Made by a program: the position numbers and the translations under genes. Of a stretch of 64,000 nucleotides of DNA, positions 572-32,192 are shown piece after piece (positions within the stretch are counted from its first letter, which is position 1; each line of letters opens with the position of its first letter). The notes beneath the pieces are model-generated. The model searched no databases. It was not told the origin of the DNA and was given only the letters and a program-made list of their open reading frames with translations. Source of the DNA: Escherichia coli (GTDB taxonomy: Bacteria; Pseudomonadota; Gammaproteobacteria; Enterobacterales; Enterobacteriaceae); NCBI RefSeq assembly GCF_045037415.1, contig NZ_CP173438.1. One strand, 5' to 3'.

Positions 572-848
572 ATTGCTTTCTGGCTCAGAATAATTCGTCC
601 TACTCATTTTCCCCCTTTTTTAAATACGTTTTCATCTTGTTTCGGACTGTCATGTAATTCGCAAAATGAAGATAAATGTGCTAATCCATCCCATGGAATA
701 TCATCACAATAAAGCAGGTAATTTTTTGATTTTTACGCCATGATAGAAGTCTGGAAGAAAAAGGCTTTCTGCGATCACAGTCGAGCCGGGCGGGCCAGGC
801 CAAATGCTAAAATAAGCACAATTTACTGACTCATTTTGAGGTAACGCT

Positions 849-1235
849 ATGTACGACAATCTGAAAAGTCTGGGTATTACCAATCCTGAAGAAATTGATC
901 GTTACAGCCTCCGGCAGGAAGCCAACAACGATATTCTGAAAATCTATTTCCAGAAAGACAAAGGCGAGTTTTTCGCCAAGAGCGTGAAGTTTAAATATCC
1001 GCGTCAGCGTAAAACGGTTGTCGCTGATGGTGTGGGGCAGGGTTATAAAGAAGTCCAGGAAATCAGCCCGAATCTACGGTATATCATTGATGAGCTTGAT
1101 CAAATCTGCCAGCGTGACCGCAGCGAAGTTGATCTTAAGCGTAAGATCCTCGATGACTTACGTCACCTGGAGTCAGTAGTAACCAATAAGATCAGCGAGA
1201 TTGAAGCCGATCTGGAAAAACTGACGCGTAAATAA
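849..1235 (+). CDS. yaeH: UPF0325 family protein YaeH
   Basis: 128-aa ORF recognised as YaeH by translation; ATG at 849. Confidence 0.85.
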
Positions 1236-1248
1236 TGTCATTCTGTGG

Positions 1249-1270
1249 GCCGGGTAAAGTCTCACCCGGC
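1249..1270. terminator. hairpin between convergent yaeH and cdaR
   Basis: gccgggt ... acccggc inverted repeat followed by taattttg. Confidence 0.5.
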
Positions 1271-1288
1271 TGTAATTTTGTAATCGAC

Positions 1289-2446
1289 CTACCGCTCTTC
1301 ATCCAGTTGTAACGCCACATACAGCAGCAACCTGTCATCAAAATTGCCCAAATCAAGCCCGGTCAGTTCCGATATACGATTAAGCCGATATTCCAGAGTA
1401 TTACGATGAATAAACAACGCCTTTGACGTTGCCAGCGGTTGCACATTGTGGCGAAACCACGCCGCCAGAGTTCGCCGCAGCAAGCCGTTATTGTCCATCG
1501 CTTTCAGCCGCGCCAGCGGTCGCGCCAGTTCGTTGGCCTGCCAGTCGCCACGCAAACTGTCGAGTAACACAGGTAACATCAGATCCTGATAAAAATAGCA
1601 GCGACTTTCTGGCATCCGCTGTTTACCCACCACCATCGTCGTTTTCGCCGTACGATAGGATCGGGCAATACTGCCAGGACCGGTAAAATAGTTGCCCAGC
1701 GAAACGCGAAAACGCAGCTGGCCATACTCTTTCATGCGGGTAATCAGTTGTTCAACTCGCTTACGATGATCTTCTGCGTCCCAGCGCCCAAAAGAGTTCA
1801 ACGCCGGTTTCAACACCACCATTTCGGTTAGCGAGACAATCGCCACTAGATTATTACGCTCGGGCGTAGTCAGCGCATTTTGCAGTTGCTGTAACTCCGC
1901 CATTGCGCTGTCCACACCAAGCTGACCGCTGTCGACCTCAACAATAGCCACCACTCGCGGTTGATTGAGATCGATCCCCAGCCGTTGCGCCCATTCAGTA
2001 AGTGCGGGAGTATTCTCCTCAGCCTGAATCAGGTTCATCACCAGTTCTTCCCGCAAACGGCTATCCTGCGCCAACAGGTGCATCAACCGCGACTGTTCCA
2101 GCATCATTTCAGCCGTCATGCAGACCAGTTCGCCATATTTACGCAGATTCTCTGGTTCACCTGTCAGGCCAATTACGCCGACAATTTCACCTTCCAGCCG
2201 TAACGGTAGATTAATCCCCTGCCGCACACCGTGCAGATGACGTGCCACCGCGTCATCGATATCGACGACTCGTCCTTGTGAAAGTACCAGCAATGCTCCT
2301 TCGTGCAATTCACCAATACGCTCACGATCGCCGCTGCCGATAATTCGCCCGCGGGCATCCATTACGTTGATATTGGTATCGATGATGCGCATGGTACGTG
2401 CCACAATATCCTGCGCCATTTTGGTATCAAGATGCCAACCAGCCAT
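1289..2446 (-). CDS. cdaR: carbohydrate diacid regulator CdaR (SdaR)
   Basis: ORF 1289..2464 translation; start moved to the MAGWHLDTKMAQ Met (385 aa) in line with the known N-terminus. Confidence 0.85.
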   Translation of the reverse strand: MAGWHLDTKMAQDIVARTMRIIDTNINVMDARGRIIGSGDRERIGELHEGALLVLSQGRVVDIDDAVARHLHGVRQGINLPLRLEGEIVGVIGLTGEPENLRKYGELVCMTAEMMLEQSRLMHLLAQDSRLREELVMNLIQAEENTPALTEWAQRLGIDLNQPRVVAIVEVDSGQLGVDSAMAELQQLQNALTTPERNNLVAIVSLTEMVVLKPALNSFGRWDAEDHRKRVEQLITRMKEYGQLRFRVSLGNYFTGPGSIARSYRTAKTTMVVGKQRMPESRCYFYQDLMLPVLLDSLRGDWQANELARPLARLKAMDNNGLLRRTLAAWFRHNVQPLATSKALFIHRNTLEYRLNRISELTGLDLGNFDDRLLLYVALQLDEER

Positions 2447-4069: not shown

Positions 4070-4098
4070 TTCAGATTCGTTTTATAGCGCGAAGTTCC
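4070..4098 (-). promoter_or_regulatory. sigma-E type promoter of degP (-35 GGAACTT, 16-nt spacer, -10 TCTGA)
   Basis: Minus-strand sequence cggaacttcgcgctataaaacgaatctgaagaac read directly; matches the sigma-E consensus and the degP promoter as recalled. Confidence 0.6.
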
Positions 4099-27889: not shown

Positions 27890-29139
<1,250 letters not shown>

Positions 29140-29316: not shown

Positions 29317-29772
29317 ATGCAAGAAGGGCAAAACCGTAAAACATCGTCCCTGAGTATTCTCGCCATCGCTGGGGTGGAACCATATCAGGAGAAGCCGGGC
29401 GAAGAGTATATGAATGAAGCCCAGCTGGCGCACTTCCGTCGTATTCTGGAAGCATGGCGTAATCAACTCAGGGATGAAGTCGATCGCACCGTTACACATA
29501 TGCAGGATGAAGCAGCCAACTTCCCGGACCCGGTAGACCGTGCAGCCCAGGAAGAAGAGTTCAGCCTCGAACTGCGTAACCGCGATCGCGAGCGTAAGCT
29601 GATCAAAAAGATCGAGAAGACGCTGAAAAAAGTGGAAGACGAAGATTTCGGCTACTGCGAATCCTGCGGTGTTGAAATTGGTATTCGCCGTCTGGAAGCG
29701 CGCCCGACAGCCGATCTATGCATCGACTGCAAGACGCTGGCTGAAATTCGCGAAAAACAGATGGCTGGCTAA
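29317..29772 (+). CDS. dksA: RNA polymerase-binding transcription factor DksA
   Basis: ORF 29299..29772; start moved to [11 protein letters not shown] (151 aa); C4 zinc finger CESCGVEI...CIDC. Confidence 0.95.
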
Positions 29773-29800
29773 TTACAGCCGTTCCATCATGTTTACCACA

Positions 29801-29831
29801 GGCGGGAAATGCTCCCGCCTTATTTTTTGTT
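29801..29831 (+). terminator. dksA rho-independent terminator immediately upstream of gluQ
   Basis: ggcggga aatgc tcccgcc hairpin followed by ttattttttgtt; lies inside the 5' end of the unrefined gluQ ORF. Confidence 0.65.
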
Positions 29832-29838
29832 CAAAGAG

Positions 29839-30735
29839 ATGACAGACACACACTATATTGGTCGCTTCGCCCCCTCTCCTTCCGGCGAGCTTCATTTTGG
29901 TTCTCTGATTGCTGCGCTTGGCAGCTATTTGCAGGCTCGCGCCCGGCAAGGTCGCTGGCTGGTACGCATTGAAGATATCGACCCGCCTCGTGAAGTTCCC
30001 GGTGCCGCAGAGACTATCCTGCGCCAGCTGGAACATTACGGCCTACACTGGGACGGCGACGTTCTCTGGCAATCGCAACGTCACCACGCCTATCGCGAAG
30101 CACTCGCCTGGTTACATGAGCAAGGACTAAGTTATTACTGCACCTGCACGCGTGCGCGTATTCAAAACATTGGCGGTATTTACGACGGTCATTGCCGGGA
30201 TTTGCATCATGGACCAGACAACGCCGCAGTACGTATCCGCCAGCAGCATCCAGTCACCCAGTTTACTGACCTGCTGCGAGGCATTATTCACGCCGACGAA
30301 AAACTGGCACGGGAAGATTTTATTATTCATCGCCGTGATGGTTTGTTTGCCTATAACCTGGCGGTGGTGGTGGATGATCACTTCCAGGGCGTGAGCGAAA
30401 TTGTCCGCGGGGCAGATTTGATCGAACCGACTGTGCGGCAAATCTCGCTGTACCAGCTTTTTGGCTGGAAAGTGCCAGATTACATCCATTTACCGCTGGC
30501 GCTTAATCCACAAGGCGCTAAACTTTCCAAGCAGAATCATGCGCCTGCGTTGCCGAAAGGCGATCCGCGCCCGGTGTTAATCGCGGCACTTCATTTTCTG
30601 GGTCAGCAGGTAGAAACACACTGGCAGGATTTCAGCGTCGAGCAAATCCTTCAGTCAGCCGTCAAAAACTGGCGGCTCACCGCAGTGCCTGAGTCGGCAA
30701 TTGTAAATTCAACATTCTCAAATGCGTCATGCTGA
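29839..30735 (+). CDS. gluQ: glutamyl-Q tRNA(Asp) synthetase
   Basis: ORF 29809..30735; start placed at ATG 29839 ([22 protein letters not shown], class I HIGH-like motif) because the upstream ORF extension overlaps the dksA terminator. Confidence 0.8.
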
Positions 30736-30794
30736 GCTATGATTAGCCGCTATTTTTTTGTCCTGAATGATGTTTGACACTACCGAGGTGTACT

Positions 30795-32192
30795 ATTTTT
30801 ACCCGAGTCGCTAATTTTTGCCGCAAGGTGCTAAGCCGCGAGGAAAGCGAGGCTGAACAGGCAGTCGCCCGTCCACAGGTGACGGTGATCCCGCGTGAGC
30901 AGCATGCTATTTCCCGCAAAGATATCAGTGAAAATGCCCTGAAGGTAATGTACAGGCTCAATAAAGCGGGATACGAAGCCTGGCTGGTTGGCGGCGGCGT
31001 GCGCGACCTGTTACTTGGCAAAAAGCCGAAAGATTTTGACGTAACCACTAACGCCACGCCTGAACAGGTACGTAAACTGTTCCGTAACTGCCGTCTGGTG
31101 GGTCGCCGTTTCCGTCTGGCTCATGTGATGTTTGGCCCGGAGATTATCGAAGTTGCGACCTTCCGTGGACATCACGAAGGTAACGTCAGCGACCGCACGA
31201 CCTCCCAACGCGGGCAAAACGGTATGTTGCTGCGCGACAACATTTTCGGCTCCATCGAAGAAGACGCCCAGCGCCGCGATTTCACTATCAACAGCCTGTA
31301 TTACAGCGTGGCAGATTTTACCGTCCGTGATTACGTTGGCGGCATGAAGGATCTGAAAGACGGCGTTATCCGTCTGATTGGTAACCCGGAAACGCGCTAC
31401 CGTGAAGATCCGGTACGTATGCTCCGCGCGGTTCGTTTTGCCGCCAAATTGGGCATGCGCATCAGCCCGGAAACCGCCGAGCCGATCCCACGCCTGGCAA
31501 CCTTACTGAACGATATCCCACCGGCACGTCTGTTTGAAGAATCGCTGAAACTGTTGCAAGCGGGCTACGGTTACGAAACCTATAAGCTGCTGTGTGAATA
31601 TCATCTGTTCCAGCCGCTGTTCCCGACCATTACCCGCTACTTCACGGAAAATGGCGACAGCCCGATGGAACGCATTATTGAGCAGGTACTGAAGAATACC
31701 GATACGCGTATCCATAACGATATGCGCGTGAACCCGGCGTTCCTGTTTGCCGCCATGTTCTGGTACCCATTGCTGGAGACGGCACAGAAAATTGCTCAGG
31801 AGAGCGGCCTGACCTATCACGACGCTTTCGCACTGGCGATGAACGACGTGCTGGACGAAGCCTGCCGTTCACTGGCGATCCCGAAACGTCTGACTACGCT
31901 AACTCGCGATATCTGGCAGTTGCAGTTGCGTATGTCCCGTCGTCAGGGTAAACGCGCATGGAAACTGCTGGAGCATCCTAAGTTCCGTGCGGCATACGAC
32001 CTGTTGGCCTTACGAGCCGAAGTTGAGCGTAACGCTGAACTGCAACGTCTGGTGAAATGGTGGGGTGAGTTCCAGGTTTCCGCGCCGCCAGACCAAAAAG
32101 GGATGCTTAACGAACTGGATGAAGAACCGTCACCGCGTCGTCGTACTCGTCGTCCACGCAAACGCGCACCGCGTCGTGAGGGTACTACATGA
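30795..32192 (+). CDS. pcnB: poly(A) polymerase I
   Basis: ORF 30774..32192; established PcnB N-terminus (M)[12 protein letters not shown] corresponds to an ATT codon at 30795-30797 (known non-canonical AUU start); basic C-terminal tail. Confidence 0.85.

Follow-up and report, generated by a model that had tools for sequence, protein, structure and literature searches.

Does transcription of dksA continue into gluQ, the gene that lies 66 nt downstream on the same strand, or does each gene have an mRNA of its own, and from which codon is gluQ translated? DksA is a global regulator of the stringent response, and GluQRS, the product of gluQ, is a tRNA-Asp modification enzyme. We examined the junction of their genes in the window, a 64-kb stretch of Escherichia coli chromosome, and among members of the Enterobacteriaceae, and conclude that it very probably carries a leaky Rho-independent terminator inside a dksA-gluQ transcription unit. 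Our own analysis contributes the anatomy and conservation of the element, the evidence that it stands out statistically, the argument on the start codon and the absence of a consensus promoter. For termination in vivo, co-transcription, the protein N-terminus and the lack of a second promoter we rely on the literature, in which the experimental support comes from Shigella flexneri and E. coli K-12.

The gene order in the window is thpR-sfsA-dksA-gluQ-pcnB-folK, and the annotation of an identical genome names hrpB, thpR, sfsA, dksA, gluQRS, pcnB and folK, all on the plus strand except hrpB. The identity of the two proteins that flank the junction is secure: DksA passes NF008045 (346 bits against a cut-off of 289), and GluQRS, a truncated GluRS catalytic domain, passes both NF004312 (618 against 453 bits) and TIGR03838 (378 against 277 bits) and matches PDB 1NZJ with E = 4e-201 across 298 aa. 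Read from the dksA stop, the gap consists of TTACAGCCGTTCCATCATGTTTACCAC-AGGCGGGA-AATGC-TCCCGCCT-TATTTTTTGT-TCAAAGAG, followed by ATG. The locus is nearly universal in the species. Among 5426 complete E. coli genomes, a query spanning 29300..30740 matches 5424 (2 are without a match), with at least 99% identity in 754, and a 116-nt query restricted to the junction (29760..29875) reaches at least 95% identity in 5423 of the 5424 matching genomes. Three matches of the dksA-gluQ query lie on plasmid-labelled records, and one genome has two copies. K-12 is colinear with the window; the two differ at 61 places in 1419 nt, none of them in the hairpin or the T-tract.

Anatomy and conservation of the intergenic hairpin

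On the coding strand, 27 nt past the dksA TAA, a stem with six G-C pairs among its eight is followed directly by a T-tract that ends 8 nt from the gluQ ATG (Table 1). The initial annotation had placed hairpin and T-tract at 29801..29831; both are there, offset by 1 nt, at 29800..29830. Folded in isolation, the hairpin has a free energy of -15.1 kcal/mol (z = -3.9 against dinucleotide shuffles, which give -6.4 +/- 2.2), none of 200 shuffles being as stable, and it is kept in context folds of 69, 131 and 201 nt. The whole 88-nt region (29773-29860) is less distinctive (z = -2.1, with 4 of 200 shuffles as stable). In the fold of this larger region the U-tract pairs with AGAGAUGA to form a weak second hairpin, which is worth about 3 kcal/mol and has an Escherichia-specific sequence; we rejected it as a conserved element.

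Table 1. Features of the dksA-gluQ junction and its surroundings, in window coordinates
Feature	Coordinates	Strand	Basis or remark
dksA CDS, 151 aa	29317..29772	+	RefSeq annotation of identical genome; NCBIfam equivalog NF008045
dksA stop TAA	29770..29772	+	
Spacer, 27 nt, dksA stop to hairpin	29773..29799	+	Poorly conserved; length differs between genera
Terminator hairpin, 8-bp stem AGGCGGGA/TCCCGCCT, 5-nt loop AATGC	29800..29820	+	Fold, strict scan, conservation
Hairpin 5' arm AGGCGGGA	29800..29807	+	
Hairpin loop AATGC	29808..29812	+	
Loop ATG that opens the longest ORF (308 aa); rejected as start codon	29809..29811	+	ORF list, comparison, Shigella N-terminus
Hairpin 3' arm TCCCGCCT	29813..29820	+	
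T-tract TATTTTTTGT (terminator U-tract), 8/10 T	29821..29830	+	Begins at base next to stem
Leader TCAAAGAG, 8 nt, ahead of gluQ ATG	29831..29838	+	No usable Shine-Dalgarno
gluQ ATG, real start	29839..29841	+	RefSeq/PGAP start in identical genome
gluQ (gluQRS, yadB) CDS, 298 aa, tRNA glutamyl-Q(34) synthetase	29839..30735	+	PGAP, NF004312, PDB
Promoter-like TTCTCA-17-TATGAT in gluQ 3' end, likely pcnB-folK promoter	30715..30743	+	Sigma-70-like scan

Since a loose terminator scan does not discriminate when used alone (5 sites in 3 kb, where 4.2 would be expected), we applied a strict scan to the whole window. It demanded a perfect stem of 7 bp or more with no fewer than 5 G-C pairs, a dG no higher than -12, and 7 or more T among the 10 nt that follow the stem. 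Across both strands (128 kb) the dksA-gluQ hairpin is the only site, returned as two stem/loop parses of one and the same site; first-order Markov resamples lead one to expect 0.17 sites per window. Inspection of the opposite strand reveals no T-tract after the hairpin stem. A weak terminator-like site on the minus strand at 29763..29780, in which GGCTGTAATTAGCCAGCC is followed by ATCTGTTTTT, has five pairs and overlaps the dksA stop; it is probably due to chance.

A one-genome-per-species scan returned 80 Enterobacteriaceae loci encoding GluQRS (76-95% identity). One of these, which ends 41 nt upstream of gluQ, was dropped, and the other 79 form the comparison set together with the window (n = 80). 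In all 79 evaluable other loci, dksA lies directly upstream of gluQ on the same strand and ends 51-172 nt from it. Of the 80 sequences, 74 have the core of the stem, GGCGGGA..TCCCGCC, intact; the hairpin is weakened in Phytobacter, two other relatives, Kosakonia cowanii and one metagenome-assembled genome. The terminator that had been claimed to separate the two genes is thus canonical in its anatomy and widely kept in its core. It unites several features of an intrinsic terminator: a G+C-rich stem-loop, an adjoining U-tract, a position after a stop codon and a structure kept in relatives.

Outside the core, both the loop, of 3-6 nt, and the spacer that follows dksA vary freely, and the flanks diverge. 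The distance from the dksA stop to the stem ranges from 16 to 106 nt, and that from the hairpin to the gluQ ATG is held within 10-27 nt (n = 80 in both cases). Some Citrobacter have REP-like insertions in the spacer (loci L014, L016 and L021), and some Kosakonia and relatives have an extra GC-rich hairpin there (L044, L052, L055 and L072); these spacer insertions always lie upstream of the conserved hairpin, and none falls between the hairpin and the gluQ ATG.

When the alignment is fitted to an 11-pair model, paired cells make up 85.7% of the total; sliding the 3' partner columns by 1-3 positions leaves no more than 58%. Compensatory changes occur only at the edges, where top pairs change from A-U to G-C and from G-C to A-U and the bottom A-U changes to C-G or U-A. 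The covariation score (0.094) barely exceeds that of shuffled data (0.082), and RNAalifold, which mis-registered one pair, returns a covariation term of -0.21. Covariation support is weak because the core of the stem, with its six central pairs, hardly varies. We read the conservation as that of a strongly kept, structure-forming sequence, and not as proof by covariation.

The T-tract is less uniform than the stem. At least 6 of 10 positions are T in 48 of the 80 sequences (median, 6 of 10), and the tract is canonical in Escherichia, Citrobacter, Salmonella and Kluyvera, where 6-9 of the 10 positions are T. The stem of the Enterobacter clade stops only 10-12 nt short of the ATG, and the tract there is degenerate, with 3-5 T in 10; termination in this clade may therefore be weak or differ in mode.

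The gluQ start codon and its translation signals

The longest gluQ open reading frame begins inside the hairpin, at an ATG in the loop, as the initial annotation had pointed out in arguing for the shorter start. The comparison comes down on the same side: the loop ATG owes its existence to the chance sequence of the Escherichia loop and does not serve as a start codon. It is limited to some Escherichia and is elsewhere absent or out of frame; the loop reads AATAC in E. whittamii and AATTAC in a divergent E. coli, and one Escherichia species has an ATG out of frame. In several genera the stretch from the hairpin to the conserved ATG is interrupted by in-frame stops. In all 80 sequences, by contrast with the loop ATG, an ATG aligns to 29839, at a fixed 6-8 codons ahead of the invariant GRFAPSPSG motif. 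Every PGAP-annotated genome examined gives gluQ 298 aa, and the crystallized E. coli YadB (PDB 1NZJ/4A91) is a 298-residue chain that starts with MTDTQYIG and aligns to residues 11-308 of the long frame. N-terminal sequencing of Shigella GluQRS, made from a construct with the whole intergenic region, yielded TDTQYIGRFAP and hence the second ATG (Caballero 2012, PMC3542578).

The longer frame nevertheless lives on in annotation. The K-12 record NC_000913.3 still describes gluQ as a gene of 927 nt and 308 aa that starts at the terminator-loop ATG (687..1613 of our locus L082, corresponding to 29809..30735 of the window). The 298-aa protein leaves 8 N-terminal positions of NF004312 unfilled, and these may derive from long-form sequences in its seed. 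The practical consequence concerns annotation only, the 308-aa start in K-12 standing against comparative, structural and N-terminal evidence for 298 aa.

In the window, the best anti-Shine-Dalgarno duplex within 20 nt upstream of the gluQ ATG has -1.7 kcal/mol; the 80 sequences have a median of 0.0, weaker than that of random 20-mers from the window (-2.4), and by this measure none of the 80 Enterobacteriaceae sequences has a Shine-Dalgarno element at the gluQ ATG. The dksA start has a strong one, TAAGGAG, with a duplex of -9.2 kcal/mol in 80 of 80. An earlier remark that Shigella gluQ-rs has no obvious Shine-Dalgarno (Caballero 2012, PMC3542578) is extended by these predicted duplexes to the whole family.

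A single change distinguishes the spacer of the window from that of K-12, a C to T at 29790. It converts ACG to ATG and thereby creates a 17-codon upstream open reading frame (29789..29842, plus strand) that crosses the terminator hairpin and whose TGA overlaps the gluQ start (ATGA). This small frame has no Shine-Dalgarno, and its ATG is absent from other Escherichia species.

To the published description the present analysis adds the conservation of the core in 74 of 80 sequences, the confinement of the loop ATG to Escherichia, the absence of a gluQ Shine-Dalgarno throughout the family and the 308-aa annotation in K-12.

Read-through as the probable source of gluQ mRNA

We propose that transcripts begin at the dksA promoters and that, past the dksA stop, the RNA folds into the GGCGGGA/TCCCGCC hairpin beside the U-tract. 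Most polymerases would be released there, leaving an abundant monocistronic dksA mRNA, and a minority would read through to make a scarce dksA-gluQ mRNA. Because gluQ apparently lacks a promoter of its own, read-through would be the only source of its mRNA. On the read-through transcripts gluQ would be translated from the second ATG (29839); that start lacks a Shine-Dalgarno, so expression should be low at the level of translation too, the missing signal presumably lowering GluQRS output further.

The statement of the initial annotation that terminator-controlled co-transcription of gluQ with dksA has been reported in Shigella and E. coli is accurate, and the experiments that it proposed, RT-PCR across the junction and terminator-deletion reporters, have already been published for S. 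flexneri, with co-transcription and a raised reporter as their outcome (Caballero 2012, PMC3542578, BMC Microbiol 12:226). There, one RT-PCR product spans dksA and gluQ-rs, and a gluQ-rs fusion without the dksA promoters gives baseline beta-galactosidase activity, as befits a gene without its own promoter. Removal of the intergenic region raises a lacZ reporter 10-fold, and mutations in the stem raise it more than 2-fold; the difference between the two suggests that the hairpin may not explain the whole drop. The same study notes that E. coli and some Pseudomonas share the dksA/gluQ-rs arrangement, and Vibrio and Pseudomonas are included in a published survey.

In E. coli K-12, RNA-seq defined an operon ligT-sfsA-dksA-yadB-pcnB-folK with a whole-operon transcript, a dksA-specific transcript that is delimited by a promoter and a terminator inside the operon, and a transcript of pcnB-folK that has S-159171 as its promoter (Conway 2014, PMC4161252, mBio 5:e01442-14). 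The internal terminator of K-12 lies at the same locus as ours, where hairpin and T-tract are identical, and from its position we infer that it is exactly this hairpin. In Pseudomonas aeruginosa, a 3'-end map locates the main end of the dksA transcript in the 3' UTR. Our search of the literature found no later mechanistic study on gluQ-rs, and two Term-seq papers that mention dksA contain nothing on this site in E. coli.

Promoter scans of the window are in line with the fusion data from S. flexneri, within the limits of consensus-based searches, in which absence of a match cannot prove absence of a promoter. From the start of dksA to the gluQ ATG, no sigma-70-like site on the plus strand is placed to serve gluQ. 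The only match there, TTCAAA-18-TATATT at 29830..29859, has its -10 element downstream of the gluQ ATG; transcription would begin downstream of that ATG, and we rejected it as a gluQ promoter. A sigmaE-like scan found no site between the dksA ATG and the gluQ ATG. A sigmaE-type motif, GGAACTT-N17-TCTTA (29085..29113, plus strand), does occur inside sfsA, in its 3' end and some 230 nt ahead of the dksA ATG, and is kept, often with TCTGA, in 66 of the 80 Enterobacteriaceae sequences despite varying codons between its elements. This motif may be the sigma-24 site that RegulonDB, according to Caballero 2012, assigns to gluQ. A second exact sigmaE-like match, GGAACTTCGCGCTATAAAACGAATCTGA, lies elsewhere in the window (4071..4098, minus strand).

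At the other end of gluQ, the promoter-like site in Table 1 implies a transcription start near 30750, which equals K-12 coordinate 159171 and thus S-159171 of Conway 2014. This promoter likely marks the downstream limit of dependence on read-through alone. The annotated start of pcnB is a non-canonical ATT at 30795.

How read-through is set is a further matter. In a regulated attenuator, growth phase or stress would switch read-through by means of a trans-acting protein, a small RNA or a ligand that acts on the stem or on an alternative fold. Such a device would accord with the stem GGCGGGA(G)/(C)TCCCGCC, which is almost free of substitution across genera whose flanks cannot be aligned, and with the behaviour of S. 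flexneri in stationary phase, when the junction RT-PCR product rises about 20-fold and the dksA and gluQ amplicons change about 1.3-fold (Caballero 2012, PMC3542578). The authors of that study raised a riboswitch-like or protein-binding mechanism themselves; their own riboswitch search was negative, however, and end-point RT-PCR is only semi-quantitative. Nor does the window offer the parts of a switch. Between 29100 and 30900 no Rfam family is found at E up to 10, bar a spurious archaeal snoRNA match inside dksA; the roughly 300 nt upstream contain no further copy of either arm; and all context folds keep the hairpin as it is. Since an Rfam match and an upstream pairing partner are both missing and the context folds are stable, the sequence suggests no classic antiterminator/terminator switch. 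The 27-nt upstream spacer is moreover unconserved and tolerates insertions. We therefore consider regulated attenuation unlikely here.

A related and rather speculative idea, which we doubt, is that the stem GGCGGGAG/CTCCCGCC could act as a factor recognition site that sets read-through under stress, and the U-rich tract as a Shine-Dalgarno-independent ribosome landing site for gluQ. It is suggested by a stem that is near-invariant, lies 10-27 nt from a start without a Shine-Dalgarno in all 80 sequences and persists despite decay of the U-tract. If it were true, the same 40 nt would encode termination as well as the start of translation for the distal gene.

The hairpin could also serve mainly in RNA stability or processing, by protecting the 3' end of cleaved dksA mRNA against exonucleases or by structuring the gluQ start, with termination as a secondary matter. 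Its retention in the Enterobacter clade despite a degenerate T-tract would fit such a role, as would its tightly held distance to the gluQ ATG while the distance to the dksA stop varies widely. The canonical U-tract of Escherichia, Citrobacter, Salmonella and Kluyvera speaks against it, however, and the reporter results agree with loss of a transcription block; as the principal function of the element we regard it as highly improbable. It is not an exclusive reading in any case, because terminator hairpins stabilize 3' ends too.

Hardly credible at all is a full-stop dksA terminator followed by a separate gluQ promoter, with co-linearity a mere matter of gene order: although the hairpin and U-tract look strong and, according to Caballero 2012 (PMC3542578), RegulonDB has a sigma-24 site on record for gluQ, the promoterless dksA-to-gluQ fusion stays at baseline and RT-PCR spans both genes (PMC3542578), the K-12 RNA-seq transcript covers the whole operon (PMC4161252), no sigma-70-like or sigmaE-like site usable for gluQ lies between the two ATGs, the only sigmaE-like site being upstream of dksA, and the T-tract stands only 8 nt from the gluQ ATG.

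Comparable systems and consequences for DksA and GluQRS

The leaky terminator of the window closely resembles the S. flexneri dksA/gluQ-rs terminator, with which it shares the genes, their order, the AUG in the loop, the in-frame second AUG and the lack of an obvious Shine-Dalgarno. The predicted stabilities agree as well, at -14.7 for Shigella as published and -15.1 for the window, Shigella being compared through its published description. The two differ in the protein, which begins with MTDTHYIG in the window and with MTDTQYIG in S. flexneri. More distant analogues, cited and discussed by Caballero 2012 (PMC3542578), are rpsU-dnaG and recA-recX of E. coli, in which an intrinsic terminator likewise directly precedes a weakly expressed distal gene that is reached by read-through only; read-through into recX is about 10%, and dnaG has an unusual ribosome-binding site. 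In these pairs the genes differ from ours and the hairpin sequences are unrelated, and the comparison is drawn from that discussion.

The leaky dksA-gluQ terminator is real, functional and ordinary, and has been known since 2012-2014. It explains how much DksA and yet little GluQRS can come from one promoter region, and it ties the expression of gluQ to the regulation of dksA.
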